Assembly: GCA_032718475.1 (NCBI GenBank) | Contig: JAUCBJ010006851.1 | Coordinates: 1 to 64,000 of the forward strand | DNA length: 64,000 bases | Origin: Nemertoderma westbladi | Lineage: Eukaryota > Animalia > Xenacoelomorpha | Direction: 5' to 3' | Shown: piece after piece, positions 12,209 through 55,701 of the stretch | How positions within the stretch are numbered: position 1 is the first letter of the stretch | How the letters are laid out: the number at the start of each line of letters is the position of its first letter | Translations under genes and position numbers: made by a program | The notes under the pieces: model-generated | What the model saw: only the letters and a program-made list of their open reading frames with translations | What the model was told of the DNA's origin: nothing | Database searches by the model: none

Positions 12209-13802
12209 TTAGTCTTTCTTGCGCGGACGGCGTTTACGCAGTTTTTTAAAGCTGGCCAGAGTCCTTTTCTCTTTGGGGCGAGCCACTTTACAAGGAGGGC
12301 TATAACTCCTGGGTGAAGGGTGCAATATGATTGCATCAGAGGGTGTAGGATTATGGTCGGTGTATCCGCCAGTCGAAGTGCCGGGTTGATTGACATCAAC
12401 GTCGGGGGAGAGGGGTCTAACGGCCTTTAGAGCGCGTTTTAGGACGGCCGCTCTTACGGGTCCTTTACGAGTGGTCTGAACAAGAGCCGTGGGTGGACCA
12501 TAGGCAGTCAGAAACTTCCTGGGTTTAATGGTTCTTTCCAACTCGCGTTCGCGGGCTCGGTATTCGTAAGGCCGTCGATATACTTCCTATAACTCGGGGT
12601 GTGAGTTAACAAATAAGTCTCCATAGTCCGGATCCTGACGGATAAAATTGATTAAGTTATAGGAATGAAGGTCGCTAGGATTAACACTCCTGAGAAATTT
12701 GCGTACAAATTTGGTTGAAATACATTCTCCGACGCGCTTCAGTAGTTCGTAACTCGATATGCGTGATTTCTGTTCGACAGAAGCGAATAGATAAGGATGG
12801 AACGCATAAACTCCTTCGTAAGCGCGTCCAGGATAATAGCGATGGCGCGAATCACAATGTAAATCAGCGTTCGCTTCCCAAGCTCTGATGTAACGTAGTG
12901 TGATCATTTCATCTACGCTTTCCAAATCGTGATTAAAAGGGCAATCGAAACTGGCGTGTCCCTTTAGTTGACAATGGTGACATTGAGTCATAAATTGAGG
13001 GCAAACCGCAAAAATATGCAAGTTATTGAGTCTGCAATATGCGCAATAAATTTCCATCGCCGGTTGTTCGTGGAAATAGGAACAGCGGACGTTTGTGTCC
13101 TTCAGTTTGTTGGTTGGGTATAGGGCATTCGTCACAATAATACCAAAGACGTACGTCCTGTAGAGGAAACGCGGGTGATCGTTCTCCAGTTTTGCAATAT
13201 TCTTCCATTTGTTCAAAACTATCCGGGATAACAGGTAGTGGACGATCGGCGGTAAGATACATCATAGTGAAATAGAGCCGTTTGAGTTCTACCATAGGGT
13301 CATGATGTATACCTTGAGGATATCGAGTCTCTAGGTTCTGCTGACTGGCGATGTTGAGATAGGTTTCTCTCAAAAATTCCAGGTAGTCGTTGAAGTCGAT
13401 GCGTTTATCCGGTTCTTCAACGTTTTCTCTTTCCAGTCTGTTACAAATAGAATTTTCGTGTTATATTCTCGGTTTATCGTTACGACTCCGCTGGGTATGA
13501 TATTTAAATAGAACCATTTCCCTTTCGGTGTCTACATCGTCCGTATCATGTAAATCGATAGGATGGCCGGTAGTTAAGAAGTCCATATACGTACCATTAC
13601 GATGCGTATAGCGAGCGGTGAATTTTCGATAGTCCAATTCACGCGTAAGTTGCTCTTGGGACATCGGCGGTTCGATATAACGACCATCGTCCTCCGTAAT
13701 GGTTGGATCGGCTTCACCGCGTATCATGCTATCCACAAATGCTTGTAAAGGTAGAGTATATCGCTCCCTGATACCAAGATCATCTTCTATCAACTCCGTC
13801 AT
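12209..13802 (-). pseudogene. E1 ORF3: ~530-aa triple-CCHC protein with a basic C-terminus, disrupted
   Basis: The ORF pieces join through in-frame stops at 13461 and 12587 and one frameshift near 13095. Motifs CAYCRLNNLHIFAVC and CHHCQLKGHASFDC align with E3 ORF3. Confidence 0.85.
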
Positions 13803-13843
13803 CTCTGCTATCTGAGTTTATTAATATCGAAATGAGTTTATGT

Positions 13844-13999
13844 TTAGGCTAGCGGGCGTCGCTGCCTACCTCTCGTTGCCCCCGGACAGTGGGATTCTCA
13901 GCGCCGATGTACCGTCGTCGCGGTGTTTACGCCAACATGTAGCAACAGCACGACAACGATAACCGGCACAAGTCACTCCACTGTCCGTCCCAAAGGCTT
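13844..13999 (-). ncRNA. Conserved structured cis-RNA module, copy A
   Basis: About 80% identical by eye to 50453-50617. Forms a long stem-loop plus a 3' hairpin, with G-U pairs on the minus strand. Confidence 0.7.
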
Positions 14000-14621
14000 G
14001 GATCCACTTTAGGTTCTTTCTATAGGAGAGTTGGGCTACTTTTACAATTGCGACTAGCTACTGTAAACATACTTTAGCAGTAACATTCACCTATAAACGC
14101 ACAAATTCCAACACAACTGTCACCAATTGTACACATACAGGCCATTTGTCCGTTAGTCAGTGCCTTCCAGAATGTCACGTTATTACTGTGTATCCTTGGA
14201 TACTAACAGTGTGCTATGTATTCTCTGTGCTATGCAATGGGACAAGCTTTCTATTGTTCTTTTAACTTGCTTCTAATTCTATCGTGGGTGTTGCTATGGT
14301 GACATTATGGAAAGCTAGCGGTAGAATTAGGGTAATTCTCATGCATACAGATCTGGGATGCTATTTAATAGTAATTCTTTAATTGTCAATATCCTCTTTA
14401 TACATGATTTTATTAATTTTGTCGGCTATTGACTATATGTCGGAGATTCTTGCACTCTAATACCCTCAAGAGGATGAATCTCCGCTCCCATGATCTATTA
14501 ATTAATGGAATTTTGGGAATGTTATAAATTGCACAAAATGACAATTTATGAAATTCATTTAAGATATGAATTTAAATTTATTCCCGTGAATTTTATTATT
14601 TGATGGTAAAATTGACACAAT

Positions 14622-14893
14622 TTTATTCCAGAGCATGTCTGGGGACCTAGGATCCTTAATTCTATAAAATTGTCTTTTAAGAGTATCGGTAAGCGCTGCG
14701 ATATCTTAATTGACTAGAAATTTTAAAGGATCTGAATTTCACAGATTTTAATAAATATTAAATTAATATTTAAGATAGGCACCGATTTATTCCAGAACTT
14801 GTCTGGGGACGTTAACCACTGATTCTAGAATTTGTCTTTCAAGTATATCGGTGGGTGCCGCGATATCTTAATCGACTAGAATTACAGATGGTC
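14622..14893. repeat. Two diverged copies of a ~110-nt hairpin module (14622-14733; 14786-14893)
   Basis: Shared tttattccaga..gtctggggac..ttgtcttt..tatcggt..gcgatatcttaat.gactagaa, with stems preserved. Confidence 0.75.
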
Positions 14894-15422
14894 AAAAGGT
14901 TTAACAGATTTATTTGCGTTTTACACTACTGTTATAGGGACATCACGCTACTATATGTATTATTTAATATAAAGTAGAAGAGCAATATCGCACGAAGCAA
15001 TGTCAGTGTGAAGAGGCAAGTCGTTTCCAAGGTCTACCCAGAGCTTGGTTTAGCCGAGACACGAGGATCTGAACTTTGCATTCCTAATACTCTGCCTACC
15101 GATAATACTTAAATATAGTAGGAGCTTTATTGTACTTTAATAAGTACTGACATGTCATCTTACATGTAGTCTCGTATTTATAATATAATACGGACAGTAA
15201 GGAACAAGAAAGAATTATTTCTCGCCGTCATATTAAATATATATTATGTGTAATTACGTAATAAACACTAATATATTGCACTAACCTACTAAATAATCTA
15301 AAATAACATTCTACTAAATAAAATTAAATAAAACGATTATAATAAAATACATAACAACGTTCGCATATAAAATATAATAAAAATAGATAGAATAATATAG
15401 TCATGCACCCACTCCAGACGTA

Positions 15423-18400
15423 TCACGTTGGGGAGTCCCTAGATGTTTGAGGAATTAGGGAGGTGGTCGTGGGAAGAGTGTCTTGTCTTCCATAGTTTCT
15501 GGAGAGTTCTCTGTCTCTTTCCAGTAAACATAAACGACCCACTGGGCGGTTGAGCTGTTGCGTCTCAAAGATTATGCCTGGCTTCTTGAAGTTACGTCGC
15601 ATGACGACGAGTTCTACCGAGCGCACTAAACCATCATCCGAGATGTGAGTCTCGATGATACGACCTGTCTGCCACCGTTTACGTGGAAGGTCTGAATCTA
15701 CAATAAGCACCATATCTCCGGCGCTGACGTTTTCTTGCTGCGCAAACCACTTAGTTCGAAGTTGTAGCGTGGGCAGGTAATGTTTCTCGAAATGGTCAGC
15801 GAAACGACGGGATAGCAACTGCATAAGTTGCCAAGTTCGACGGCAGTATTCGTCTCCGTCGGTAATCTCCGATCGTGGGAGCATGGCTACAGGTTTCTTC
15901 AGTAGAAAGTGCGCGGGTGTTAGCGCTTCCAGGGAATCGGGACTCGATGAGACTGGCATAAGCGGTCTCTCGTTGAGATAGGCAGCTATTTCCTCCATTA
16001 ACGTCCGCAAAAGTTCGTCGGTGAGATACGCGCGGCATGGCACTATAAAGTGAAATGCGGTCTTGACACTTCTAATTAATCTCTCCCAACTTCCTCCCCA
16101 CCAAGGGGCGTCGGCGGTGTTGAAGGTCCAGCTAGACGCTGTTATCCTTACCTGATCGTCCACCTGTCTTTGGTTCCAGTCCTTCACGTAAGCCTGGATT
16201 TCGTTGTTGGCACCAATGAAGTTCGTTCCCTTATCCGATCTCATGGTATTACTAGTCCCGAAGCGAGCGATCTGTCGGCATAAACTTAAGACGAAGCTGT
16301 TGGTAGATAGATCGTTCACCATATCGAGATGGATGGCTCTACAAGTCATGCATACAAAGATGACACACCATCTCTTGACTATAGTCCTAGCACGATATAC
16401 TTCAATAGGGCCAAATAAATCTACACCAGTATTAGTAAAAGGTGGTTCATAGAAGCTTACTCGTTCCCTAGGTAATTCTGCCTCTCGCTGTGTTAAAGGC
16501 CTACTGAATGCTTTCCTACAGGGTATGCAGTTCCTAAGAACTTGGTTCAGAGCTCTACGGGGTTTATAAAAATAATAGCGAGTTCGGATTTCGCTAAGAA
16601 CTCGTTCTCTACCAGCATGATAAAGTTTACTGTGAACATCTACAATCATCTTGATTTGTACTTCAAGATTTCTAATGAGTATGGGGAATTTAGTGTCAAA
16701 GGATAATGGCGCATTGGTGAGTCTTCCTCCAACACGTATTAACCCATCTATCATTGTGCTAGAGAAGCGATCCCTTAAGCTCATCTGCGGATTTCTCAAC
16801 AACAGGAAATACTTATCGGAATCCTCATAGCATTGCAGGAGTCTCAGTATCTGCTTATTGGTTTCTTCATGCTCCTGATAACTGATTTTTTCCTTTAGGA
16901 ACCGGTCGGATGTCTTATATTTGGGTAAATTTTTAATAACATGAACTTGCGCAGATGTCAATGGAACGATATCACTAATGGTCTTCGTCCTGGAGTAGTG
17001 ATGATGAAAACATCGCCTTAAATATGTGACGGCTTTACAGAGCCGATTCCAGGAACTGTAGTGATGCATTGCTCTCTGCAGCAGGGGTGAGATTCCTTGC
17101 GAGACGTCTGGTATTCCAGATTTCCAATCTATCTATTCCTATCTCTAATTTCCACAACAGACTTATTTGTGGCGAGGGATTGTGGATCCGAAGCATCATT
17201 TCCGGAAGTATGTAATACAGATAGATCGATCGCAGGTTTAAATAACTTCGATTTACTCGCCCGGGTTTTAGGTTTGACTTTCTCCGCTCCCTTGGCTTGT
17301 CTAATCTCCGCCGTAGTAAGGTGAGGAGGCCATTCATCCTCTTCCTTGCTCAGGAAGTCGGGTCCACCCAACCAGTCTGGAGTATCTATCAGTTCCTGTG
17401 GAGTCGCTCCCCTGGAGGCGATATCGGCTGGATTAATCGTACCAGGGCAATGTCTCCATTGATCTATCTTTGTGCGACTAAGAATAATAGCTACCCTGTT
17501 AGTAACAAAAACGCTGAACTGACAGACTTCATTGGTTATATACTCCAACACGAGTAAAGCGTCGGTCCAATAAACAGTTTTCTCCAGTGGATAGTCGATT
17601 TGTTCTGTCATGTTCCGGCCGATGGCTGTAGCGTATAAAGCCGCTTTTAACTCCGCTCGAGGAACCTTTAACTTGTTGTTAATCAATGCCTTAGAGGTAA
17701 CCAAGGCGACTTTGATTCCATCCGGAGTTTCGACTGGCAGATATGCTACTATACCTATTCCCATGTCGCTGGCGTCTCCAAACACGTGGAGTTGATAGGA
17801 ATACGTAGGGAGAACATGACCAAAATATGCACGGGAAATTACAAAGCTCTCGATGGCAGGTAGAGAATCTTCCCATTTCATCCACTTCTTTAACAGTTCT
17901 CCCTTAAGTGGATCGTCCCATGAGTGGTTTTCAAGCCACATTTGTTGTACTAAACTCCGAGCAATCAATATAACTGGGCTAATAAATCCCAATGGGTCGA
18001 AATAAGTGCTCAGGATACTTAAACAAATCCGTTTGGTCCGAACTGGATTATCTCGCTGTTTTAGCTGAAAAAACAGGATATCTCTTTCTGTGTCCCACTT
18101 CAAGCCAAGCGTCTTGGTTTCTGGAAGATCGTCCTTTATTAAGTCTAGGTCTTTCGTTCCTCGGTCTTCTACCGGTATCGCTTCCAGAAACTTACGGGAG
18201 TTGCTAGTGAATTTCGTCAGTCGAAATCCACCTCTTTTCAAACACTCTACCGTTCCTTTCGCGACATCAATGGCTTCTTCTACTGATGGAAGGGACTTTA
18301 AATTGTCGTCCATGTATATATCGCGCTTGATGTTGTCTATCACCTCTTTGGAGAAGGCGTCTCGGTTGTCATTCGCAGTGGTCCGCACCACGGAGCAGGC

Positions 18401-21400
18401 GTTGGAAGGGCTTGATATGATCCCGAAGGCCTGGATGGTCATCCAGTACTCTACCGGTTTCTGGTTGAGATCTCCTTCAGGCCACCACAGAAATCTTAGG
18501 ATGTCTCTATCTCTATCCTGCGCTTTAACTTGTAAGAACATTCATTCTATATCGGAGGCGAACGCGATGGAATATTGTCTTAATCTTAAAAGTATTCCCA
18601 ACAAAGATTGGAGTAAGTTGGGTCCTGGTAACAACTCGGAATTGAGGGATTGGCCCATATATAGAGCGGAGCCATCGAATACGACTCGTACTTCATGGGG
18701 TTTACCGGGTTTGGGAACGTAATGATGTGTTAAGTAATACGTTCTCTCAGTTACTGGTGTTCCTTCCGGTACTCGCTCCGCGTATCCCTTTGTAATGCAT
18801 TTCTTCAACTGAGTTTGGTACATCTCTTTAGCTGAAGCATTAGCCGTAAGGCGTCGATGTAATTGAGTGATTCTTTTCTCTGCCAAGGGTCTGTTATTTA
18901 TAAATCTAGGTTCTCGTTTTCGAAATGGTAGGCCGATTTCATATCTACCTTGATCTTTTAAAAAACGTGTAGTTGTTTCCTGGATTTGCTTGGCTCTTTC
19001 TTCTTCTATCGATAGGGCCTTATCGTATGAATTGGGCTCTACCAATTCTTGAGTAAAGAATTGTACGGCGAGTTCGTCCCGAGTTCTAGCGTTGTAGCGC
19101 TCTATTTCATCATTTAGTTCGTCATTGTAATCAATGGGTCCCGATGGGCGAATCAGTTGACATAGGTTCACCTGGTTTTTCCAAGTTTTGTTTTCTGTAA
19201 GTAGGTCGATCGTGTTCTCTTCATCGAAGAGTTGGTAGATGTCGTCATTATCTGAGGAGTATGGTGTTCCCTCAGTTAGTTCGTCCACCTCACTGCTCTC
19301 CACTTCCCAATCATTTACTTGGTATATTCGTTCTTGTGGTAATCTCTCTTGGAGAGTTCTGCGGGAAGGGCCAGTAAAGTACCAACCTACTCTAGTTCTT
19401 ACCGCATAGGTTTGTAGTGGCTGCGGTTGAGCAGGCCGTTTCTCCAATGTCTCGAGCGCCTCATGCGCGTTTTGGCCGATGAGTATTTGCACTCCAGGAT
19501 AATCTGTCTGGAATCGAGGTATTTTAAGCTGTTGGATGCTCTCGTCCTCGTCCCAGTTATAAGGTTCTACTTGGGTAGTAGCGAAGTTCTTTATAGCTAC
19601 CATTTTTACCGACCTTATACCTTGTGCTCCTAATTTATCCTGGGGGGTGGACAACGCACCTACATAGTAATCTGCCGTTAGGGTAGATTTCCAAACCTGC
19701 ATAATTCCGGACATATTCAACTTAGTTTGGAATTTGGGTGGTCCAGCAAAGATATCTTCGGCTAGTTCTTGATCGATGAATGTTCCTGTGCTGCCGGAGT
19801 CAAGGAGGGCGTTCACTATGTAACTTTTGTTAGGACCGTGAACTCTTACCTGCACTACAGGAAATTCTCTGATTCCTACGTTGGAAGTTGGATCTTTCCA
19901 AGATGGTTGTTTGTCAAAAGTAGTTGGGGGGAACTCATTGTCTGTGTCCTCTTCGTAAGTAAGTGCTCGATATACTGCGGTATTTATTAGGTAACAGGAT
20001 TCGTTGGCGTCGGAGAATTCGTCAGTATAGAATCCTTCCATCTCAGACTCTTGATCAGTGTCATTTACATCACTGAATTGGACATGTAGTTCGGGCTCAC
20101 TTACCTGACTCGGGTTGTTTCGTTCGAATTCACTGTGTAACAAGATGTGATGTTTCGCACCGCACTTTGCACACTTTACGTCGGAGTAACAGGTTCGCCG
20201 TTGGTGTCCTGGTCTGAGGCAATTATAGCATAACCGCTTATCCCACATGACTTCACGTCTGTCTACTAGGGATTTCTTTAGGAATTCAGCACACGCACTC
20301 AAACGGTGGGGCCCGTCGCACAGCGCACAGTTTGGTTTGATGTTACTCACTTTACCTTGGGTAACTTGATGCACTCTCGTTCTTTCTTCGGGCTTTCTTC
20401 CGTGCATTCTGTTAGGAGACTGAGGAGGAGTCTTGGCAACCTGTTCTCTCCTATCATTGGTTCGAGCCTTGTATTTACTTACGTCTTTTGAGGTTTTGTT
20501 AACGTAGTAAAATCTGTCAATGTCTTTTCCGCTGTCCTCTTCTTGAGAAGCTTGGCTTTTGCCGTCGTCAGTGTAACACACTGGTGTTACTCTTCTCCTA
20601 GAAACGGGTTTCTCACTTACCTTATTTTCCGATGTTTTCTCTCTGGACTGCTTGATGAGTTGTAGTTTTACTTCACCATCTAAGAAGGACATGAGATCAG
20701 CCATGGTAGGGCCTCGTCGTTGCTGCTCATTCATATACAACACTTTCTTATCCCAGCGTGTACATACTCCACCCTTTGGTAAAGTAGAGACTACTGCTCC
20801 AATAACCATGGAACTCTGATATTCATGAGACTTACCTAACCAGTCCAATTGTCTACAGATCTCCTGAATCTCATCGGAAAACTCTATAATCCCGCTACTA
20901 AGGAACTTTCGGGGGGCTACTAATTTTGCATACAAATACTTAGCTATGTTATCCTTGTTACCATACCTGATGTTTAATGTATCCCAAACTTGTCTTAATC
21001 CATCTGGATGTCCAATAAACTTTAACGCCATTAACTTGGGAGGTCCTTCCAAGCACTTGATGAGGAATCTAAGTTTCTCTCCGTTAGATAGTACAGAGTT
21101 CTGTATGCTATCTTTGTAATATTCATTAAAAGGTAACCATTTCATCTCATCTCCATTGAATTTGACGATTTCTCCCACTTTGACCGCTTGGCGGGCTTCT
21201 GTTCTAGCCATCTGACGCGTAAAGCTTTCTTGGGCCATCGTGTTATTTAATATCGAATTATCGGTATATAAATTTCTCGGATTATTATCAGGTCTATAGG
21301 GAATATCATTAACAACAGGTTTATAATCACCCTTAATAGGGTTTGCTATAGGAGTTTCTACTTCACTAGCAGTATAGATGCGTGTAGGCTCCACACCTTG

Positions 21401-23426
21401 CGCATGTAATACTTCAGACCTAACAGGTTGACACAATGTTACAGGGGGTATTGGTATACCCTTTTGTATATTGACTAATTTGTCGCGTTCCAGCGCGATA
21501 CTTTGCTGCACTTCTTGCAATTCTACCCTACTTTCCCTTACTGTTCCCTTGAGTTGGTGGACAGTCCCTTCTAAATCTCGGATCTGCTGTGAGGAACATT
21601 CTCGGTGCTCTCTCAGCTGCCCGAGCAAGAGACCCATCTCCCGCCGTCCCTCATCAACCCACTCGACCGCCGAAGCGGGAGTCGCCAACATTGTAGCGGG
21701 CCGACGCGGGACGACGGGAAACAAATCTTTGATTTCTCTGGGTCTCTAGCACAGGAGTGGCTTTGGGAACGACAGGCCTAATTATTTCAGGCCCATCAAC
21801 TATCGTAGGGAGTCTTTTGACCTTAATAATTTGGTCTGTGGGTTCTGTACTACCTAAGTCTGTGCTAGCTAGTTGTCTTCTAACCGCTGGGGGCAAATCA
21901 GGCAATTTGTGACGGTGAGATGTTTTTCTACGCCTGCTTAGACGAGATCTATTTCCTCCGCCTTCAGGATCGGTGGTCTCGCCTTCCTCCGATGATGTGT
22001 ATCCTTGGCGCTTGGGAGTAGATCGACTCCTCATCTGCATTTGACTAGCAGTTAACTGTTTATTTATGCAGTCTTGCGTCTCTTGCAGATATTCCAACTC
22101 CAGTTGGGTAGTCTCCTCAGACGCTCTCCGTTCTGCTTCTGCCACTGCCTTTGCTGCCTTTCTTTCCGCTTCTGCTTCTGCCATTGCCGCAGCTACTGCC
22201 TTTCTTTTCGCTTCTGCTTTTGCCATTGCCGTGGAAACTGCTGCTGCCTTTCGGTCCTCTATCCGTTTTTTCTTTACTTGTTCTTCTTGGACTCTAGCGA
22301 GGCGGAGTTTTTCATCAAATTTAGCTTGGTTTGCAGCTAACATTTCCGCATCGATTGAGTCCAATACAAGCTTGGCTCCTTCACTATTGGGGCGAAGTCC
22401 AGCCAGTCGTCTCCTCAACTCTTCATCACCTAGGAAACGTTGATAGTCTGACAGATAGATGTCTATGGCGTCTCTCGTTCGCAGTCTCTCTGCGGTCACT
22501 TCGCTTTCCACTTGAGAGAAGGTGGCATCGGTTGATTCTTCATAGGTTGGTCGCTCAGCCAGCTGGTATTTCCACTGGGCCGTTTCTTGAACTTTGAGAC
22601 CTATCCGCTGGAACCAAGTCTTGACAGCAACTTGCAGCGACATGTCCTGTCTTCTTTTGGAAGTTTCCTCAAAGGCTGATAGGATTAATCTAATGCGTAG
22701 GGTTCTTTCGCGTACTTGATAAAGCAGCTCTTCCTGCTCTTGAGGTCCTTGGGGTTGTCGAAACAGTTGTTCTTCTAATCGCTCTAAGGAGCTGAAGAAT
22801 CCCTGCACATATCCTGCTGCCGACCTCTTCCAAACAGCTGGATCCATCGTATCTTTAGTCACTCCCATCCTGTGTATGTCTTCCCAGGTAGCTTCAGATA
22901 AGTCTAACGGGGATCCGGGTCCGGGAAAGTTCCATTGTGACTCGACAATAGACATCAATTCTTCCCTGGCGTATCCCGCATAACTATCTTGGGTCGCTCG
23001 CTTACTTCTCGCCCAATCGACTTGGTGTTCCTCCACCGCAATCAATATCGTTATCAGTACTGCGGCAGGAAGGGTGAGAAGGGGATCCGAATAGGCTGTA
23101 GCCGCCATCTTCACTCCGCGTTCGGGGGTCAGCTCTACAGTATCCGAACTACTGGAGCTATCGGGTCGCTGGGAACGAGTTTCTTGACTAGGATGTTGCT
23201 GCTGTTGGACAGCTGCTTCTTGGTTCCGTTTGACCTGGGCCCGAGTGCCGATGATAGACCTACGGTGTTGGATTAGCCTAGGGTCTGATACTACTACTGG
23301 AGGGATGACTTTTCTTTCAGTAGGAGGTGAGCTGAACCCCTTTCTTAATCGCTCCACCCTCCTATCTGTGTCACAGATGGTTGTATCGATTAGGCTGTCT
23401 GACAGGTTTTGCCTAGTGTCAGACAT
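15423..23426 (-). pseudogene. gag-pol: E1 gag-pol polyprotein (coiled-coil N-terminus, Gag with Zn knuckles, PR, RT, RNase H, IN), disrupted
   Basis: Motifs CYNCLRPGHQRRTC, LLDSGS, YMDD, HVFGDAS and GVDLFGP/SDKGTNF/WERLI. Frameshifts near 21700 and 17130, and an in-frame TGA at 18542. Confidence 0.93.
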
Positions 23427-24776
23427 GCTTAGCTATACAGTTGAATGCTTACTGCTATAGTTACAGTTAAAGCAAGTCCAGTAATTCAGTATGACCGTTG
23501 GCCTAGTACCGGTAATTTATTACAGTATATTAGAATACCGGTATACACTTATAGTATATATAAGTATTGTAGACTAGGTTTGTCGCAGAATACCGGTATA
23601 TAATTTTAGCACAAATATATATAAATATATAATAGGCCTATCGTGAATACCGGTATGCAGCTTACACTTATAGTATATATAAGTATAATTATGGACTAGA
23701 ATTAATTACAGAATACCGGTATAATTTCAGCCTAAATTTATAGAAACAAAGATAATAGGTCTATCGTAAATACCGGTATATCAATTATTTAAATAACTGA
23801 ATTTCTGAAATTTAAAGGTTACTTAGTTACTTTAACTTACTTTATTACCATTATTTAAGCAGTAGTCCAACTGATATTGAGACCTAATTGTTGTATGGCA
23901 GGCCTACTCGCTTATAAACCTTTGAGTTGATTTATAATAGATATATATATGTATATACCCGTATGAGGGGTTTTGTTACAATATTGAAATAGATGTTACT
24001 ATTTCTGGGGGGAGTCACTACACAGAAGCTGTGCGCTCTCAGTGAAGTGCTACTTATTGGACACTAAAACAGATAATTCTACTTCCTAAGTTACTTATCT
24101 ACGAATTACTTACGATACGGGTGAGATTAATTCTCTAACTAAACACAACAAAATATTACGTACGAAATTTTAGGGTAATTTTACAGGAAGTCTACAAACC
24201 AGCCTAACAAAGGGTTAGAATTCTGGTTATTACAACGGACAGGGTATTACGGTATTTGAAAATAATAAGTAGTAGTAAATATGTTGCGCTGTCCAGATAG
24301 TTAAAATACCACCGTCTGACGACCTATAGCCGTATCGCTATAGGTACTAAATTATGTATCACGGAGTGTTCCTACCTGGAAGTTAATTACCGCGGACTAC
24401 CAGATCCAACGTGCCTATTAACCACTTTACAACACAATACACTGCCTACACACTAATTACTTTCGGAAAGCACTGTACACCAAACCCTAAATTAGGTACA
24501 AGTACTTATTAAAACAGATAACTAGCAGTTAAATATACTTGAACAGTTAAAAGAACCACGGCATCTGCTGGAGTGACCGGAGCACAAAGTCACCAGTGTT
24601 TACCTACGCCAAGCAGCCCGTGTAGTACCGGGGTTAATTTAACTATAACGGTATGTGTAACAAGCACAATTACTGTAGGAATAAACTTGGGGACATGAAT
24701 GTTGCGAATAATAGCATAAACTCTGAATAATAAATATTACGCTACCCGTACAGACTACTCAAACAAAATACAAACC

Positions 24777-25300
24777 AAACGCTGGCAGACTACCATCAAG
24801 CCTAAATAAACTACAGTATGTGCAGATTCCGAAATGGTTAGTTAGTATGCGTTCTAACACGGTAGTACGACTTATTCTTTAAGAGGGGATTGACCTTACA
24901 ACTCAAGATGCCCCAACTTACTAACTGGCACTTTATCAGACAAACTCTACACACGCAGCAATCTCTTCAGACCTAATAATAGCTAGACAACAATCCAGCC
25001 TACAAAATATCTGAGTAATAACTATTACGGTACCTGAACAGACCACACAAACAAACACAGGCTAAAACGCTGGCAGACTACTATCAAGCCTAAATAAACT
25101 ACAGTATATGCAGATTCCGAAATGGTTAGTTAGTATGCGTTCTAATACAGTAGTACGACTTATTTTTTAAGAGGGGATTGACCTTACAACTCAAGATGCC
25201 CCAACTTACTAACTGGCACTTTATCGGACAGACTCTACACACGCCGCAATCTCTCAAGACCCAACAACAGCCCGACAACAGTCCAGCCTACAATTATCTG
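24777..25300. repeat. ~290-bp tandem duplication in the E1 5' leader, with 33-bp repeats at 25478-25605
   Basis: aaacgctggcagacta..atcaagcctaaataaact occurs at ~24777 and ~25066. Confidence 0.9.
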
Positions 25301-25666
25301 AACAATCTGCGCAGACTTACACGTCTTCTGCTCAATATTAACTTACATGTAAATAAAACCGACAGAAATAAGTAAAATCTCAATAAAAAACCAGGGCGGC
25401 CTTTCCCTGATTAAGTACTAAGACCTACCGGTATACAATAATCAAAATCGAATAATACTAATGTACTTATACTGGAAGTACCGGTTAGGACAGTTGGGCC
25501 TACAGACCTACAGCAGTACCGATTCAGGCAGTTAGGCCTACGGACCTACAGCAGTACCGGTTCAAGCAGTTGGGCCTACAGACCTACAGCAGTACCGGTT
25601 CAGGTTTACCGGTCGACCGGTACTTTCAACTTTATTGCTTACTGCAATAAAGAAAATAACTGTTAT

Positions 25667-26853
25667 TGTACGCGCTTTTGAAGACCTTTAGCAGTTTAAC
25701 CTGCCAAAATTTATATGTCTTTTGGTTTATAAATAGACTTTAGCATATGACAAGTATTTAATACCAATAAACACATATTAGCCGAAGCCAGCCTAGTGCG
25801 CGTCCATTCACCCGCTGGATATACCCGGGAGACTGGATTCGGATGGGCTTAGATTTTTATTGCAGTGTAAGCTTACGGTATTATTCGATTGATCGTTAAT
25901 AAATAATCTCAGACGAATATTATTCACTTTCGGGAAATATTAACAGTTCCTTTAGGACGTGGCGCTCTATCTAGGTAAACAGAGATATGACTTATACTAA
26001 ACACAACGGTAAGACGGTAAGGCTTATGATTCACGTATGAGGCGCATTCTTTAGGAAATGCTTAGTTATCAGCCACAATCATGCACACTACCGGTACCGC
26101 ACAATACTGCACACCAATCTGCCGACCGTCAATGAATTTTATCATACATAAAGAGAACAGCAATTGCCTCATGTAGTGCCTATCTAATAGCATTAAATTC
26201 ACTACAAACCACGATAATATAAGTCGCAATCGCTATATGTAACCTGTCTCTCTAACCTGTAGTGTATCAAGAAAATTGGGAAATTTGGGTTATTTATCGA
26301 TGTTCTCCAAGTAATAATATTCAACCAACTGATACAAATATTGACAGCAGTAAATAGCAGTATAATAATGTATGTTGCACTGAACTGTATGCTGTAAGAC
26401 TGAACTGATTGGGTTGATAACAGTTATACGTTCTATAATCTAAGCCTACTAATGTTTCTTCTAAAGTCTGAAATCAATTGACTCCAGAGCCGGTGTTCTT
26501 GGCCTAGATAGAAACAACACAACTCAAAACTAAAAAACAGTAAGACAGAACACTCCTAGCACGATCTGTAGAATATCTCCACGTCGACAGTAAAAATCGC
26601 CCTGATTGGCTGTTAAGCTGAACAAAGAACCATGTGTCCAACGGCCGTTTCCATGCCAGCAACCAGCTGTTAGATGTCGTAATCTGAATCATCAAGGCTA
26701 CACTGTGCTAGAGGATTTGACGCATTGCGGGTTTTGTGCCTTGCCATGTCCGCCAAAGCACACATATAGAAGAATGACTTTTATGTCCGTTAAAACACCT
26801 ACAACGGTACTTGGCGGGCAAGGGGACTGATTATATCCGCAAAAGCTTTTACA
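25667..26853 (-). repeat. E1 5' LTR
   Basis: Direct repeat of 10945-12131. Confidence 0.97.
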
Positions 26854-29938: not shown

Positions 29939-30079
29939 ATGTAGATGAGTGCGCTACTGATACTCACGGATGCATTGAAAGTGACACAACAACTGGAAGT
30001 TGTACAAACAATGAGGGAAGCTATCAATGTGAATGTAAAGCTGGCTTCATACCAACCGCCAATCCACAGATTTGCCAAG
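29939..30079 (+). CDS. Host exon encoding one calcium-binding EGF domain ([47 protein letters not shown])
   Basis: cag|..|gtaa boundaries, 141 nt, phase 1-1, six Cys with the DxDEC and CxNxxGSYxC consensus. Too short for the ORF track. Confidence 0.93.
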
Positions 30080-45200: not shown

Positions 45201-45922
45201 GTGCCATGGCTCACGTAACTCACCACGCACATTACCCGTCGATGGTCATGGGACATTCTCTGCCCCCCCCCCTCTCGCCCTCCGTCGGGTGCCACGGTTC
45301 ACTCAACTCACCGCGTACATTACCCGTCGGCACTCGTGGGACATTCTCTGCCTCCCCCCCCCCCCCATTCACCATTAATCGCTTGTGGTGGGGTGCCCGC
45401 AGCCCCCCCCCCCCATCCGTCACCTCTTACTTCGCCCCCCACGCTCCCCTCTAGTCGACGCGTTATTTCTACCCTCATTGGGTTTATTCACCCCCGCTAC
45501 TCTCTGCTGAACTGCGTAGCCTTGCAGGCTCTCATTGGGCAGATCGCTTGTTATTGGGATCGGAAATAAATGAATACCAGCTGCATCAGTTTATTAATGG
45601 TCGACATACAGAACAGCATATCAAACAATAATATGAACCAACAGACCAACGAACACACCCACCACCTTACAGCACATCAGTACAGCAGTACAGTAGGTAC
45701 CGGTAATGGTTACTGTACCTACAGACCTAGAAGATAGGAAAGACTGAATACCGGAATACCAGAAGAGGACCGGTAGGTAAAAGACCAGTAGGTTTGATCT
45801 AACCACCACCAAGCCAGGGTCTACTAGAGCCCTAACAATACATAATCTAACATCTCCCCCAAGAACAATGTAGGAGACATTTGTACTGAAAAAAAAAATC
45901 CAACCACCACCAATAGGTCAGT

Positions 45923-48900
45923 TCATTGAACTCCGAATCTTGCTGGTTGCTTGTGAGTTCTCGAACAGCGCCTGGGAAGATCATCAGCAAACTGTACCTG
46001 TTTTTGAGGCGTTATGTCACGAAGAGAAGAGTCATCTGGGATGGAACGCAGATAACGACGATTTCTCCAATACACCCGACCATTGTCTAGTTCTATCCTG
46101 TAATCTCGCCTAGTACCACGGGAAAGGACGATACCAGATTTGTTCCATAGTTTGGAATGTGCACTCTGGATGCAAACTCGGGAACCAATAGGAATCGGGG
46201 TTAAGTCGTGAGCATGATCATTATAATATGATTCAGTTGCTGAAGACGTTGAAGGACCAGGGATAGGGAATGAATCACCTACCAGTGTGGACGAATGAGC
46301 TGGTATAGTGGAACGGAGGGATCTACCGAACAACAGTTGAGCTGGAGACATACCATGTTCTTTAGGAGTATTTCTCCATTCCAGCAAACCACGAACAAAG
46401 CAAGTAGAGTTTAGATCTCCTTTGATATCTAACTTTTTTATCAATGATTTCATGGCCTTTACAGCCCCCTCTGCATGGCCATTAGACTGAGGATACTCAG
46501 GAGTAGAATACTCAGGGATGATATTCCATTCGGATAAGAAATCATGATAACGTGCTGAATTAAATTGTGTACCACCATCAGAACGAAGGCGTTTTGGAAT
46601 ACCAAAATCTTTGAACCATCCTCGAAGAGCTGAAATAACTTGAGTGCTGGAAGGATCAGCACGCCAAGAATAAACGCATGGCCACCCAGAATATCTATCG
46701 ACATAAACCAGGTATGACCAGGTGCTGAAGTAGAAGAGATCAGCAGAGCAATCCTCCATTGGAAGACATGGATGAGGGTCGCTTTGGAGAGACTCTTTAG
46801 GTAAACTTGGTTGATAAAGTTGACACTGGGGACAAGAATTGACTATGTTTGTAATATCGCTATTGATACCAGGCCAGAATACAGTTTGCCTAGCTCTCCT
46901 CTTAGAACGTTCAATGCCCTGATGAGCATCATGAAGGTGCTTCAGGACATTCTTGCGGAGGGAAGATGGAATTACAATCCGGGAACCTAATAAAAGAAGA
47001 TTATCTTCACAAGATAACTGATGTCGCACATTCCAGAATGGGCGTATGTGCACAGAACATTGTGTGGATGTTGAGGGAAATCCAGAAATAACAGCATCCA
47101 CCAAAGCCATGTAAGAAATATCATCCTTTGCAGATGATCGGATAGACTCAATATATGAATCCTTGAGATGACTTGGAGCATCAGAGACAACAATTGAGGT
47201 AGACACGTGACGAATGACTGCAGAAACATGGTCATTGACATCTGTATCACAAAGAATATCCTCTGGAGTAGGATCCGAAACAGGGGCACGGGAAAGTGCG
47301 TCTGGAATGGAATGTTCACTTCCCTTTCTCCATGTTGTATTGAAGAAATAAAGGCTGAGTTTCTCTTTAAGACGTTGGATTCAGGGATTGTCTATCATAT
47401 CCAAAGTATAATTGTTTAGGATAGGAAGAAGAGGTTTATGATCAATTACCAACTCGAATGATGGGAGACCCATAAGATACACCTTACACTTCCTAGTAGC
47501 CCATACGACGGCTAACAGTTCAAGCTCTATCATTGCATAACGTGATTCAGTGTCAGTGATGAATCTTGAACCGCACTGAATGAGTTTCCAAAAGCTGTCG
47601 TGTTTCTGAAGAAGTGAGAAACCAAGACCCTTCAAACGTGAAGCATCTGTCTGCAACATTGTAGGCAGCAATGGATCATATGGAGCTAGAATTGGAGGAC
47701 TTACAAGAGCTTTCTTAACTGCTTGAAATGAAGTTTCTTGGGGTTCTGACCAACAGAAGACATTTTTAACTTTAAGAAGGTCCCGAAGAGGGCCTGCCTT
47801 TTCGCTAATAGAGGAAGTGAACTCACCTAGTTGGTTCACAAGACCCAAGAAAGATCTAAGTTCAGAAATGTTGGTCGGAACAGGAAAGTCAGCAATGGCA
47901 TTAAGTTTGGAAGGATTTGCTTGAATACCATTACTACTAATTATATATCCTGCGAAGCACACCTCAGGGGTAGCTAATTTGAATTTCGCAGCTTTGAGAC
48001 TGATCTGGTGTTCACGACACCGATCTAGAACGGCAATAATATGTGCGAGATGACTGTGACCATCGGAAGAATGAATTAGAATGTCATCAACTACTTTAGC
48101 AATGCCATCCAATCCCTGTAAAGCTATATCACCACGAAGACAAAACACATCTTGTGCTGAAGTTAATCCCATGGGATTCCTAAGAAACTTGAATCGACCC
48201 CAAGGGGAAATGAATGTTGTTAAATTCTGACTGGATTCATCAAGAGGTATCTGCCAATATCCATCGTTGGCATCTAATGAAGAAAAGAAGCAATCTGATG
48301 GAGAAATCGAATTGACAGCCTCACGAGGAGTAACCGATGGATGATATGGACGTTTAACATGTTTGTTTAGTATAGTCAAATCAACACAAAGGCACCAACC
48401 GCCTGTTGGTTTAGGAACTACAACAAGAGGATGGACCCAATCAGTTGGTTCGTTATCCAGAACTGGACAAATAATACCTTGTTCAACCATTTTCTCTAAG
48501 CGAGCTTTAGCCCAGTCTCTAATGGCTAAAGGAAGTTGCCTGGCTGTATGAATAGCATATGGTTGGGCATCATCTTTTAATGAAATGGTCATGGGTGGGC
48601 CATTCATTGGACGAAGTTTGTCATCTTGGTCAAAAACATCAGAATAAGCCTTTATGAGTTTCTGCTTAACAGTATCCAATTCTGAAGGCGAAGGTTCATC
48701 AGAAAGATGGAAGTCAACCTTGAATGATGTTGTTGGAATTGAGTTTTTAATACCAATAGGTGACATATTAGAAGAATTAGAAGAAGCAACAGACTGAATT
48801 TCTGCCACTGGTTCTGGATATGAACTTGAAATAATTCCTAGGTTTTGACAAGTATACCATGCCAAAAGAATTCCATCGACTTCTTCACAAATGCAGATGA

Positions 48901-49174
48901 GCTCATCAGTTGAATATTCGCCATAGGAAATTGTGGTGTGGAGGAGACCAATGCATGAAAGAAGACTACCATTAGCAGCAGAAAGATCTTCATGGTCTAG
49001 TGGAAGTAAATTTTCTTTGTCAATAGAAAGGGCCTGAAGAAAATCTAAGCCGGCAACAGTGGCCTCAGCACCAGTATCTGGAGTTGCTTTAAGAGAACCG
49101 AATAAATGTCCTGTTGCGATATGACAGAAGTTCAGAAATACTTTCGGAGCTTGTCGATTATGGCTTCCAACCAA
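45923..49174 (-). pseudogene. pol: E5 pol (PR, RT, RNase H, IN) with one in-frame TGA at 47381
   Basis: Motifs DTGA, VVDD, TDAS, H-H-C-C, SDGGTQF and PQSNGHAE. The two ORFs are in the same frame. Confidence 0.93.
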
Positions 49175-50253
49175 ATTGAGGGTGATGCGGCTAATGGGTT
49201 TTGTCTTGGAGATTTTGAAGATGAATTCGAATTATTTTGTTTAGACCGACAAACATTGGCAAAGTGGCCTTCCTTGCCACAATAAGAACAATCTTTGTTC
49301 CTTGCTGGACAGTCAGCGCGTTTATGGTCTGTTTTACCACAACCATAACAAACTATAGGGCCAGTAGTTGAAGAATTGTTTCTGGAATTGGATTTAGAAG
49401 AATTGTTGCGCCTGGAATTATAAGGCTTTTTGTTGTGAAAACGAGATTGTCGAGAAGCTTGGTTGATTGAAGGGTTTTTTAAATCCTGAACTCCAGCTTG
49501 GGCTGATTCCTCAGACCTACAAAGATTTACAGCATCTTCAAGCGATGGAAATGGAGTCAATGCAAGAAGTTTAGATCTGGTGTCCTCGCAAGAAATACCA
49601 GACATAATTCGAGTAGTCAACCGCCGATCGAAACAATGACGACATAGATCAGCATCTCGAGCAAGATCTTTAATAGCAACCAGGTAGCTATCAAAATTTT
49701 CACTTTGACATTGTTTCCTATTATCAAAATGAACACAATCAAGGGCTATATTCCGTTTACCACGAAAATAACTTTGAATACAATCTATTAACACCTGAAC
49801 TGTTAAAGGATTATCATGTGTGTCAGGAGGAATGTCAATAACTTGTTCCAGTGTAGAGCGCATACCTATAGAAAGGTAACTCCTGAAAATACAGATTTGC
49901 CTATCCCTAGCCATTCTATCCATCTGAAATGCAGAATAATAATCCGCCCAAACCGACTTCCAAGTTTCAAATTTTGCTAAACTGAAATCCGGTTCTAAAG
50001 CAATTGGTGCTTTAATTTGAAGATTACGAGGGGTTGAGTCAGCCTGATGAACTACAGGTTGATGTGGTTGACCAAGTAATTGTTGAAATTGATGGGCATT
50101 TTGGGCTTGGGATTGTGCTAAGGAATCAGCCAAATCGCGTTGTGATTTAACTAAAGCATGTAGAAGAGCTGAGGTGGGATCAGGATTACCACGACCAGCC
50201 AACTGTTCTCTTAAAACCTCCAGTTCAGTTTCGAGTTCAGCTTTAGTAGGCAT
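49132..50253 (-). CDS. gag: E5 gag with two CCHC knuckles
   Basis: Motifs CYGCGKTDHKRADC and CSYCGKEGHFANVC. Confidence 0.92.
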   Translation of the reverse strand: MPTKAELETELEVLREQLAGRGNPDPTSALLHALVKSQRDLADSLAQSQAQNAHQFQQLLGQPHQPVVHQADSTPRNLQIKAPIALEPDFSLAKFETWKSVWADYYSAFQMDRMARDRQICIFRSYLSIGMRSTLEQVIDIPPDTHDNPLTVQVLIDCIQSYFRGKRNIALDCVHFDNRKQCQSENFDSYLVAIKDLARDADLCRHCFDRRLTTRIMSGISCEDTRSKLLALTPFPSLEDAVNLCRSEESAQAGVQDLKNPSINQASRQSRFHNKKPYNSRRNNSSKSNSRNNSSTTGPIVCYGCGKTDHKRADCPARNKDCSYCGKEGHFANVCRSKQNNSNSSSKSPRQNPLAASPSIWLEAIIDKLRKYF

Positions 50254-50452
50254 ATCTGACTGTTGAATATTAGAGAAATTTCAGGAAATTAAATATCCGA
50301 AAAAATTTGAAAAATCCAAAAAGAAAAAATTTTGCAAAAATGTGCAAAACTTTTGCACGCAAATCAGCCCAAATCTGTAGTTATCGAATACTGACAGACT
50401 GGAATACCGCCTGACTGCTGAATGTGAATTGAATAGGTACCGGTAGTTATAA

Positions 50453-50617
50453 TTAGGCTAGCGGGCGTCGCTGCCTACCCCTCACGGCCCCCGGACAGCG
50501 CAAGGTCCTCAGCGCCGATGTAGGCTACCGTCGTCGCTGTGTTTTGCGCCAACGTAGTAGCTACACAACGACAACGATAACCAGCGCGAGTCACTCCACT
50601 GTCCGTCCCAAGGGCTT
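50453..50617 (-). ncRNA. Conserved structured cis-RNA module, copy B (E5 5' leader)
   Basis: Homologous to 13844-13999 with pairing-compatible changes. Confidence 0.7.
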
Positions 50618-50785
50618 AGTTTAGAAGAGTACTGGAGTAGGTACACCACCAGAAGTATAGGTAGGTAGCTAGGCCTAGATCAGAATCAGTAGAGGCGACC
50701 GGTAGAATAATATTGAATTATCTAACCTGCTGAATGCACTGGAATGTCCACCATTTGAATAGGGTTGTAGGAACATCAAGTACAT

Positions 50786-50795
50786 CACTGCGCCA
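50786..50795 (-). promoter_or_regulatory. E5 primer-binding site TGGCGCAGTG (tRNA-Ser-like)
   Basis: Immediately follows the 5' LTR. TGGCGCAG is complementary to a tRNA-Ser-type 3' end. Confidence 0.8.
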
Positions 50796-51327
50796 TATTG
50801 GGATCGGAAATAAATGAATACCAGCTGCATCAGTTTATTAATGGTCGACATACATAACAGCATATCAAACAATAATATGAACCAACAGACCAACGAACAC
50901 ACCCACCACCTTACAGCACATCAGTACAGCAGTACAGTAGGTACCGGTAACGGTTACTGTACCTACAGACCTAGAAGATAGGAAAGACTGAATACCGGAA
51001 TACCAGAAGAGGACCGGTAGGTAAAACACCAGTAGGTTGGATCTAACCACCACCAAGCCAGGGTCTACTAGAGCCCTAACAATACATAATCTAACACTTG
51101 TTCTCCCTACTTTTGTATTAATTGCACCGTTAATAGTTTCGCCCTGCTGGTCCACTGCGTTATTAATTGCATTATTTTGATTATTTTCTCCACTGTTATT
51201 TATTATATTATTATTTGAATTGTTATTATTTAAATTATTTGAATTATTTTGCCCTACATTATTTATATTATTATTTAAATTATTTTGTATATTCGAAGAG
51301 ACGGTAACAATACCTGCAATATCCTAC

Positions 51328-53182: not shown

Positions 53183-53744
53183 CCGCTCCATGAAAACAGG
53201 ATATTATCGTGCATAAAATATACGGTTTTCACCAATAATCAATCAAACTATAGAATACTTAGGGCGTACTTACATATTTACAATTAAATTTCAAACAATA
53301 CTTCCTTTCTACATAATGATTCGATACAAATAATTACAAATTCAAACTTTACGTATTTAAGTCTTTACTAAGTAAGTACAATATAAATCTAAATTAAATT
53401 CACCAATATAAATCTATTGCATCTCAATATTGCATAAATTCAAATAATTACAAATACTTTCGTGCCTAAATGTAGATTGCATAAGTTCGGACTAATTACA
53501 AATATGAGTCTTTCTAAGCACAAAACTTTCTAACTATAAAACTTTCTAAATACAAAATATAACACTTTACAAATGAAACTATAAGAAAGGCCCACGAGTC
53601 TTCCATCTACTCTTACTTTCTATTTCACTGTAAATACAAATACTGCTTATAAGATATAAATTGCATAATATTCGGAACAATATAAATTGCATAAGTTCAG
53701 AATAATCTCAAATATAAAATATAAATCTTGCAAAATATAAGTTC

Positions 53745-53852
53745 TTACTAAATATAAATCTTACTAAATATAAATCTTACTAAATATAAATCTTACTAAA
53801 TATAAATCTTACTAAATATAAATCTTACTAAATATAAATCTTACTAAATATA
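53745..53852. repeat. 16-bp tandem repeat (aaatataaatcttact) in the E3 3' UTR
   Basis: Directly visible, ~6 copies. Confidence 0.9.
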
Positions 53853-53962
53853 AGTTCTTCCAGAATACAAACTTACTAATTAAATATAAAACATATAATT
53901 CAAATAAATCACAAATTCACAAGAAAGGCTCACGAGTCTTCCGTCCACCCTTGCCCTCCCTT

Positions 53963-55701
53963 TTATCGCTTTGTGGATCGAGCCCTGCCGCGTCCTCGAA
54001 AACTGCGCACAGGTGACTTTGCTCGCGATATGGGACTTGTGGGGCGAGTCACTGGTTTCGTTTGGACGTTGAGAGACGGTGCGACTATTTCCTCGCAAAT
54101 TCGTCTATTTGGCATCCCAAAACCTCGACCGATTCCTCGTGACCGATCAGTTGTCACTACAGTTGGTAGAACGTCTGGGAACGCGCGAGAAGCGGACGAC
54201 GCAGACCCAAGAGCAGCTTGCGCCCCCTTCTGATCAGCTGGTGTATGTCCCGATCCTCCTATTGGTTCTCTAGGAAGCGATACCGTATCCCGAGTAATTC
54301 GAATAGTCGGCTCAACTCCCTTGCGTTCTTCTATATTAATAATTTTCTTTAATTGTTGGCCCACTTTCTGGACCCGTATGATCCTACCCTGTCCGTCCTC
54401 CCGAGGGTGACGTGCAGACGGCGCAACCGGAGTGGCTGGTATGTCGGTCGCCTCTAGTATCTCCTCTTCCTCGAATACGCTCGCTCGTATACGTTTATGG
54501 TAAAACGCGGCTCGGTACGCCCATGCGACGGTTAACCAAGCTCCTTTATTCCGTTTTTCAGTTCGGAAACGATCGAATTCACCATACGTGATGCGATTAA
54601 CGACTTTCTGAAAATTCCACGTGTTTTTGTTATCCGGGTGAATCTGTAGTAGATACTCGCACACTACTCGGAATCCACTGTCGTGGGGCAAAATATCGAC
54701 TACCTCGATAAGTTCGTCATATTGGGGCATAGCGGAGATATATCCTTCCGACATCATCGTTTGGGGATTTACCGCCCAAAATCCAAGATGCGCTCTCATC
54801 GGAAACCGTCTTCTTTGTGCCGATACATGTTCGTCGGCTAAATCTTCCCACTCATCAAATAATTTCCTCACGAGTTTTACAGATTCGTGTTCATAAGGTA
54901 TGTCTCTTAGTTGGCATTCAGATGCTCGATGTCCCTTTATATTACAATAAGTACATTGAGCCATAAATCTCCAGCAAGTATAAAAGGTATGAGACCCTTG
55001 ATCCCCACACCATCCACAGATTAGCTGAGTCGTAGTAATGTGCTTTCCACTGCACTTGGTCAAATGATGTCCAGCGACGCCACATTTACCACACATCGTA
55101 TTGGCAGGGTACCACACTCGTTCGTATATAAGATCTCCAATCGGTCGAGCGCTTCCTCCCACACTATAATCGTAATCATCTGGATCTATGGGTTGGTAGG
55201 TTTCTGAGGGTTGTATACAAACTATAGCATCTGTTGCTTCAAGTTGTCGAATCTCCGTCTGAGATTTCTTCGGGAGGTTCCTTTCTATCTCAAGAAGTTC
55301 CTCTAAAGGATCGTCAGTGATCGTAGAAGTTACTTCGAAATCATCACCAAGGTGACCGATAGGCGCGCGCGTCTGCCGTGATTCATCCGTAATCTCCACG
55401 ATACGTTCTCCTTCATAGGGTAACAATGTAAACATAGATGGTCTTTCGATAAGAGATCCCGCACAGCGAAGATACACGTCTCGAAATATACTAAATCCTG
55501 CTCGAGTAAAGGCATTACACTGAGCGTCGGAGTTGTAGAAGGGTTGTCATATTTAGTCTTTGCGAGTTTCGCTGTACTTTCTGATAATTCCTTTATACCA
55601 AATATGGTGTAGTCCTTAGCTCCAAATCGTTCGAATGGCGCTGCTGCTTCCTCTTGGATATCATATCCCCATCTCGGCTCTCCATGTATCCCCTTCTCCA
55701 T
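53963..55701 (-). CDS. E3 ORF3: ~580-aa triple-CCHC protein with an R/G-rich basic tail (probably one frameshift between 55330 and 55480)
   Basis: Motifs CGKCGVAGHHLTKC, CGWCGDQGSHTFYTC and CTYCNIKGHRASEC. Homologous to E1 ORF3. Confidence 0.85.

Follow-up and report, generated by a model that had tools for sequence, protein, structure and literature searches.

Third genes of two BEL/Pao elements

The window analysed is a stretch of 64,000 nucleotides from Nemertoderma westbladi (contig JAUCBJ010006851.1), in which two elements, E1 and E3, carry DUF1759, Peptidase_A17, integrase and DUF5641 in the gag-PR-RT-RH-IN order of BEL/Pao (Belpaoviridae). The gag of each holds three knuckles, the last with a terminal His, an arrangement that is a hallmark of BEL/Pao gag. 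E1 has TG...CA termini and is flanked by a 5-bp target duplication. Both elements contain an additional, third gene downstream of pol, and their features are as follows.

10945..26853, minus strand: BEL/Pao element E1, 15.9 kb (Pfam DUF1759, Peptidase_A17, Integrase_H2C2, DUF5641)
25667..26853 and 10945..12131, minus strand: LTRs of E1, 99.2% identical
12209..13802, minus strand: third gene of E1, interrupted in this copy by two in-frame stops and a single frame change
13137..13802, minus strand: acidic N-terminal part of the E1 third gene (about 220 aa), constrained
12695..13136, minus strand: E1 core, three CCHC knuckles and then a helical W-E-x-x-A-D-x-H part
12212..12290, minus strand: Lys/Arg-rich C-terminal tail of E1, from the translation
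12132..12138, minus strand: E1 polypurine tract, abutting the 3' LTR
56365..64000, minus strand: E3 gag-pol, 2544 open codons up to the window edge
53963..55701, minus strand: third gene of E3; 52 codons precede a frame change at 55545/55546 and 527 open codons follow it
54698..55102, minus strand: E3 core, three CCHC knuckles (55093-54914) and then the helical part
53966..54100, minus strand: basic Arg/Gly-rich C-terminal tail of E3, from charge profile and translation
53183..53189, minus strand: probable E3 polypurine tract, GGAGCGG, as in the E1 and E2 tracts

The in-frame stops of the E1 gene lie at 13461-13463 and 12587-12589, and its frame change, near 13085-13100, splits knuckle 1. Judged from its polypurine tract, the 3' LTR of E3 would probably start at 53182, the 5' LTR lying beyond the window. 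A preliminary description had presented both genes as sense ORFs of 530-580 aa following the integrase. Orientation and place are correct: both genes run along the minus strand in the direction of gag-pol and lie past the integrase, before the 3' end. Neither, however, is one open ORF. The length was understated too, because at each of the two frame changes additional sequence is present in other copies; part of the N-terminal region is missing from the E3 window copy. The breaks of the E1 and E3 window copies are not common to the other copies in public sequencing runs.

Coding constraint was assessed in these natural copies. In the E1 family, 24 of the 27 segregating substitutions listed, taken from the best 40 of 453 rows, are synonymous, where about 35% would be expected to be (p 2e-8), and within 13101-13802 this applies to 12 of the 13 segregating changes listed. 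Among the contig pieces listed, those lying within the E1 gene are gap-free in 26 of 28 cases compared with 0 of 4 for those reaching upstream; some copies show one 1-nt insertion within the gene. The E3 substitutions form a weak set (7 of 12 synonymous, p 0.10). The acidic N-terminus and basic C-terminus reported earlier are borne out by net charges of -9 (first 50 aa) and +11 (last block) in E1 and of -14 (residues 51-150 of the long frame) and +10 (last block) in E3. As also reported, there is no transmembrane segment and no signal-peptide-like stretch, the highest 19-residue hydropathy being 0.83 (a reading from hydropathy), and similarity to viral fusogens was found neither with Pfam nor with PDB profiles, nor when a model of low quality was compared with viral folds. 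Since no hydrophobic segment is present the gene is not env, and the substitution pattern supports the earlier view of a real non-env accessory gene under purifying selection.

Between E1 and E3, pol is 42-43% identical and gag 26%, and no blastn match was obtained between their nucleotides, consistent with the divergence first described. The earlier alignment of the two third genes stands for its quoted motifs (27% identity over 159 aa, E 5e-17), but homology is confined to a core of about 150 aa; no alignment was found between the N-terminal parts and comparison of the tails gave no similarity. At 27% identity, set beside 26% for gag, the core is conserved to the same degree as gag. A third BEL element of the window, E2, is as near to E1 as E3 is and has no third gene; its LTRs are 97% alike, indicating that BEL elements here can move without a copy of their own. 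A second polypurine-tract copy was considered as the mark of a capture point and was rejected, E2 having one too.

The knuckle-helix core and its outside relatives

No Pfam name exists for the core, which combines three CCHC knuckles with a helical W/F-E-x-x-A-D part, and an NCBIfam scan gave no family. Word-seeded protein searches with the E3 core or a two-sequence profile found nothing. A full HMMER protein scan gave 8 matches, from which P0001, P0003 and P0004 were discarded as repeat or generic-knuckle matches, and the core was found to recur in six unnamed proteins or loci, namely P0002, P0005, P0007, P0008 and P0009, on contigs of 1.3-13.5 kb, and L001. An HMM built from these outside relatives alone finds both third genes (13051-12695 of the E1 core, E 1e-15; E3 core, E 7e-21, hhalign probability 97.7), as does the post-knuckle part by itself (E 1.4e-6 and 8e-5). 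That the third gene is a plain gag nucleocapsid fragment, a possibility raised at the outset, was therefore rejected: the post-knuckle part is conserved independently, and Pfam detected no capsid family in the N-terminal parts before the knuckles. The description of the gene as lineage-specific is not supported in that form: unnamed proteins of no relation also contain the core, in most cases downstream of an EXD2-like exonuclease region, and E2, equally close to E1, lacks the gene.

Five of the six relatives carry an EXD2/RNase D-like exonuclease region upstream of the core. Their N-terminal region gives a profile match to human EXD2 (E 1.6e-4), and D-x-E is present in four of the five relatives that cover the exonuclease region. 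As read from the alignment, P0008, P0009 and L001 have ExoI D-x-E, ExoII D and ExoIII Y-x3-D; P0002 has E at the last exonuclease site, and in P0005 the exonuclease motifs including D-x-E are gone and the module is doubled. In a fold search with the P0008 model (pLDDT 33), EXD2, RNase D and Nibbler were among the ranked matches, although none reached E 0.001, and the weak E3 core model (pLDDT 49) matched no solved fold. Searches of viral, metagenome and prokaryote contigs retrieved a single genomic context, that of L001, which is 2345 bp long and has no flanking genes. In the N-terminal parts of E1 and E3, no exonuclease was detected by HMM or hhalign (best E 0.05; probability at most 0.2%). 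The module profile matches knuckles that bind RNA in Lin28 (E 4e-5), in Air2 and in nucleocapsids which, with the presence of three CCHC knuckles, makes nucleic-acid binding a reasonable inference.

Proposed role, rival readings and a structured RNA element

A structured RNA element was found next to the E1 third gene and in an unrelated element of the window.

13838..13999, minus strand: structured GC-rich element of about 165 nt, ending 36 nt upstream of the E1 third-gene ATG; fold z -4.3
50447..50617, minus strand: second copy, within an unrelated Gypsy element (45552-51096), in its 5' UTR; fold z -4.0

The E1 and Gypsy copies are 83% identical, and of 58 predicted pairs 2 are changed on both sides and 0 broken, in a comparison of two sequences only. 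No Rfam match was obtained at E up to 10, tRNA scans were blank, and the pattern was not found in viral contigs; by eye, the element fits none of the consensus patterns of HDV, twister, pistol and hammerhead. It is absent from the E3 spacer and present in a Gypsy element that has no third gene, and is consequently not an obligate partner of the protein.

Judged from these sequences, the product of the E1 and E3 third genes is tentatively seen as a nuclease-free RNA-binding accessory protein acting on the element's own RNA, a reading that we favour while giving it somewhat less than an even chance. In the outside relatives the knuckles would hold single-stranded RNA for the 3'-5' exonuclease, in the manner of the trypanosome RNase D CCHC fingers, and the BEL version would have lost or replaced the nuclease and retained the RNA-holding arm, a later fusion being the alternative direction. 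As the gene lies 0.7-1.6 kb past the pol stop, its product may be made from spliced or internally started RNA. The basic tail, in a presumed role as nuclear signal, would direct the product into the nucleus. By coating the unspliced RNA of the element there, the product would protect that RNA against decay or small-RNA processing and aid its nuclear exit, as CERV or Rev do.

The same nuclease-free module could instead serve as a silencing decoy: in the cytoplasm it would bind either precursors of small RNAs or a trimming complex of the host (Nibbler, Mut-7 or EXD-type), and the silencing of many elements would be weakened in trans. The domain that accompanies the module is EXD2/Nibbler/RNase D-like, and P0005 has a doubled module without D-x-E; both are consistent with this, and action in trans would account for E2 lacking the gene; the basic tails, on the other hand, resemble nuclear signals, and a cytoplasmic decoy is considered unlikely.

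Somewhat less probable is a second nucleocapsid, that is a packaged RNA chaperone, perhaps of Gypsy gag origin, that would help a very long genome of about 16 kb to dimerise, to anneal its primer or to undergo strand transfer. The six-residue spacer between knuckles 2 and 3 is the same as in the window's Gypsy gag, which the core HMM also matches (E 5.5e-7), and the element of the Gypsy 5' UTR stands directly 5' of the E1 gene. However, the post-knuckle part that is kept in the outside relatives has no match in Gypsy gag, E1 and E3 each retain the three gag knuckles of their own, and the N-terminal parts match no capsid family.

The N-terminal part might also be a highly diverged exonuclease fold, making the protein a dead or active exonuclease-knuckle member like the rotifer DEDDy third genes. 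At least 220 aa precede the knuckles and are constrained in E1, the layout is that of five of the six relatives, and part of this region is missing from the E3 window copy; the blank exonuclease searches on both N-terminal parts and their failure to align mutually nevertheless leave it decidedly improbable.

A more speculative extension, to which only a slim chance is given, would make the knuckle-helix module a portable RNA-gripping unit from an undescribed exonuclease family, serving as a Rev-like factor in BEL/Pao with the 165-nt element as its response element; the unrelated Gypsy element, which has no third gene, would carry its copy in order to make use of the BEL protein in trans. Neutral carriage of a fragment captured from the host would fit the broken state of both window copies and the lack of the gene in E2, but is very hard to credit and for E1 largely refuted, since the breaks are private to the window copies and, among those listed, changes are mostly synonymous and pieces gap-free.

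Comparison with known systems

The literature presents BEL/Pao elements as gag-pol, with env as an optional addition, and calls their replication poorly understood (PMC8742986). Gypsy-type elements are known to carry third genes other than env; for BEL/Pao, none was found described in the literature searched, nor did an accessory ORF already on record, which the preliminary description had named as a check, come up there. The presence of a conserved gene other than env in two abundant families shows that BEL/Pao includes complex elements that have an accessory function, and it singles out one protein and one RNA element as candidates for testing. The core of the gene is an unnamed protein module that ties E1 and E3 to an undescribed family of EXD2-like exonucleases, a link that bears on the role of nuclease-related third genes in retroelements.

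The top ESM Atlas feature matches were fungal CCHC proteins of DUF8363 (PF27939), with a score of 0.88 (lead threshold 0.9); the match was not reproduced with the relative P0009 and was absent from the Pfam scan. The env-like third gene of Belpaoviridae is described as located between pol and the 3' LTR (PMC8742986, PMC3118150, PMC13524379), and the E1 and E3 genes occupy the same position with no signal-like or transmembrane segment and no glycoprotein match. At 15.9 kb, E1 is longer than the family's stated size of 4.2-10 kb.

The CERV protein of C. elegans Cer1 sets a precedent for export by a protein that is not env (PMC10309623). Like the products considered here it is a non-env accessory protein with a cysteine-rich, putatively RNA-binding part, and it offers a model for nuclear export of unspliced RNA; unlike them, it belongs to a Gypsy element and, by its described architecture, is set apart by G-like and M domains and a C4 loop. 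In Trypanosoma brucei RNase D (PMC7797062; PDB 7c45), a DEDD exonuclease is followed by CCHC fingers which grip RNA near its 3' end, at nucleotides 5-9 counted from that end, the order being that of the outside relatives. It differs as a cellular enzyme with four fingers and no sign of the helical W/F-E-x-x-A-D part, and the module profile matches it weakly at one knuckle pair (E 0.18).

The rotifer LTR elements Juno and Vesta carry DEDDy-exonuclease and GDSL third ORFs (PMC5408684). They are not BEL/Pao elements, unlike E1 and E3, and the main text of that study makes no mention of CCHC or zinc, although it notes a Cys-His-Cys motif in two ORFs. The E1 and E3 genes show no nuclease domain and show purifying selection, which the study did not find. 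Both systems nonetheless have in common a gene other than env that follows pol and precedes the 3' LTR, with a patchy occurrence among related families, and an RNase D-like DEDDy region is carried by the outside relatives of the E1/E3 module too.

The third gene and its elements

The window contains one Gypsy element and three BEL/Pao elements (E1, E2 and E3), each of them on the minus strand. It also has three tandem arrays.

Features of the window
1001-2240, tandem array of a 44-nt unit
4541-6200, tandem array of a 30-nt unit, open in several frames
10945-26853, minus strand, BEL/Pao element E1, LTRs 99.2% identical, 5-bp target duplication
13802-12209, minus strand (sense to the element), E1 third gene, interrupted by two in-frame stops and by a single frame change
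27558-29460, tandem array of 15/17-nt units in two inverted blocks
32111-44115, minus strand, BEL/Pao element E2, without third gene
53183-53189, minus strand, probable E3 polypurine tract
55701-53963, minus strand (sense to the element), E3 third gene, one frame change, then 527 open codons
window edge to 56365, minus strand, E3 gag-pol, open reading frame

Identities in RT-RNase H and integrase were 43% and 42% between E1 and E3, 46% and 43% between E1 and E2, and 41% and 37% between E2 and E3, respectively. The long sense gene reported after pol in E1 and E3 by the preliminary description is real, and is separated from pol by a non-coding spacer of 1.6 kb in E1 and 0.7 kb in E3. Its designation as an open reading frame, on the other hand, does not hold for the window copies, both being broken by stops or frame changes. 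The two proteins align only over a core module of three CCHC knuckles and a helical W/F-E-x-x-A-D part (27% over 159 aa, E 5e-17); neither the N-terminal parts nor the tails can be aligned. Gag is 26% identical between E1 and E3, so that the core is conserved at about gag level. The non-env character and the charge pattern described earlier were also recovered, with an acidic front, a basic end and no hydrophobic segments found in either protein. The post-pol spacer of E2 (1.85 kb) gave no match to the third gene.

Several other features of the elements were observed. The LTR ends of E2 are apparently TA at both ends, not TG...CA, and the putative E3 LTR also starts with TA. The polypurine-tract core GGAGCGG has a second copy in the post-pol spacer of all three BEL elements (14482, 33210 and 56245, minus strand); in the window it has 11 matches against 2.5 expected, all 11 on the minus strand and five of them inside gag-pol coding sequence. 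Behind the E1 5' LTR (25630-25666, minus strand), an 11-nt stretch that forms a local hairpin is also complementary to an intra-LTR site (position 988); it may serve in self-priming. Immediately before the Gypsy gag ATG, a U-rich tract with CAG (50255-50370, minus strand) resembles a splice or trans-splice acceptor.

Coding constraint and the upstream structured element

Constraint was assessed on contigs from public sequencing runs, which are deep over both third-gene regions and show other family copies. At both E1 stop-codon sites, practically all the depth in four runs carried a different letter, and at both frame changes the loose ends of contigs pointed to extra sequence in other copies; the stops and frame changes are therefore private to the window copies. 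Among the 40 E1 substitutions listed of 453, 31 lay in the gene outside the breaks and 27 of these segregated in the family, of which 24 were synonymous (p 2e-8 against the 33-35% that transitions would give). Synonymous changes made up 12/13 in the N-terminal part, 4/5 in the core and 8/9 in the tail; four changes private to the window copy were without synonymous bias. Contig pieces wholly within the E1 gene were gap-free in 26 of the 28 listed, many at 10-17% divergence, and all four listed pieces extending upstream of it were gapped. One 1-nt insertion within the gene, among 12 indel rows listed, counts against constraint. The E1 third gene is under selection. The signal was weaker for E3: synonymous changes accounted for 7 of the 12 that segregate (p 0.10), and the 12 indels listed of 36 all fell outside the gene. 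Of 13 contig pieces, 10 were gap-free and two more had gaps in multiples of three.

Upstream of the E1 third gene, a 165-nt stretch of the post-pol spacer (13838-13999, minus strand) ends 36 nt before the ATG and shares 83% identity with a segment of the 5' UTR in the unrelated Gypsy element (50447-50617, minus strand). Both copies fold strongly (z -4.3 in E1, -4.0 in Gypsy), with 58 predicted pairs, none broken and two changed on both sides as judged from these two sequences only, and many G-U pairs in the sense-strand fold. Rfam gave no match to this element and it is absent from E3; a diverged E1-type contig from the public runs bridges it and the third gene. Its role may lie in export, in packaging or in internal ribosome entry, or it may equally be left over from recombination.

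The core module and its outside relatives

Pfam returned a sub-threshold zinc knuckle on the core and nothing else. Scanning 1.84 billion proteins by HMMER with a two-sequence (E1 and E3) profile gave eight matches, five with the whole core; the other three were discarded as repeats or generic knuckles. A metagenome scan added one further relative, L001. Invariant in a set of eight sequences are the Cys and His of the knuckles, the third-knuckle G-H and, in the helical part that follows, E, A, R and G. An HMM built solely from the outside relatives recovers E3 (7e-21) and E1 (1e-15), a check not fully independent because the relatives were first found with window sequences. Its post-knuckle half, alone, matches only E3 and E1 (1.4e-6 and 8e-5), and the window's Gypsy gag is matched through the knuckles only, which argues against a plain gag fragment. 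Among solved structures, the core profile best matches the knuckles of Lin28, nucleocapsids and Air2.

Five of the six relatives (P0002, P0005, P0008, P0009 and L001) carry an N-terminal exonuclease-like region, and a profile of it built from the first four matched human EXD2 (E 1.6e-4); the sixth, P0007, is short and without this region. The full DEDDy motif set is kept in P0008, P0009 and L001; in P0002 the last site is E. The acidic motifs are gone from P0005, in which the core module occurs in two tandem copies. At L001 969-1045, the exonuclease region and the knuckle module are in different frames that overlap, perhaps by sequencing error or by frameshift.

The ICTV profile of Belpaoviridae gives gag, pol and env as the only genes (PMC8742986), and passages of two other papers mention env-type additions as the sole kind (PMC3118150, PMC13524379). 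Searches of full-text literature turned up no BEL/Pao gene of the present kind; one may be present in Repbase, GyDB, subscription journals or paper supplements. Taken together, the third gene of the BEL/Pao elements E1 and E3 is a genuine accessory gene that is constrained and not env. It is built around a knuckle-helix module that has no name and is linked to an exonuclease family of EXD2-like type.

Possible role of the third protein

In trypanosome RNase D, CCHC fingers keep RNA in place near its 3' end for the nuclease (PMC7797062); on this analogy, the most likely role of the core module is that of an RNA-holding arm. Having a basic tail and no detectable nuclease, the BEL third protein would most likely bind element RNA in the nucleus, and the bound RNA would then be protected or exported; we infer every functional step of this role, and propose it tentatively.

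A decoy against silencing is another reading, and an unlikely one. Somewhat less likely still is a second nucleocapsid. A cryptic exonuclease fold would fit the relatives, and is more doubtful again: no exonuclease region is detectable in the E1 and E3 third genes, part of the E3 N-terminus being missing from the window copy. A neutral passenger is highly improbable beside the selection seen on the E1 gene.

The proposed protection or export of element RNA has a functional likeness in CERV of Cer1, which is reported to protect or export its element RNA (PMC10309623). Non-env third genes, DEDDy nucleases among them, have been described in rotifer LTR elements (PMC5408684, PMC5718144, PMC6431247).
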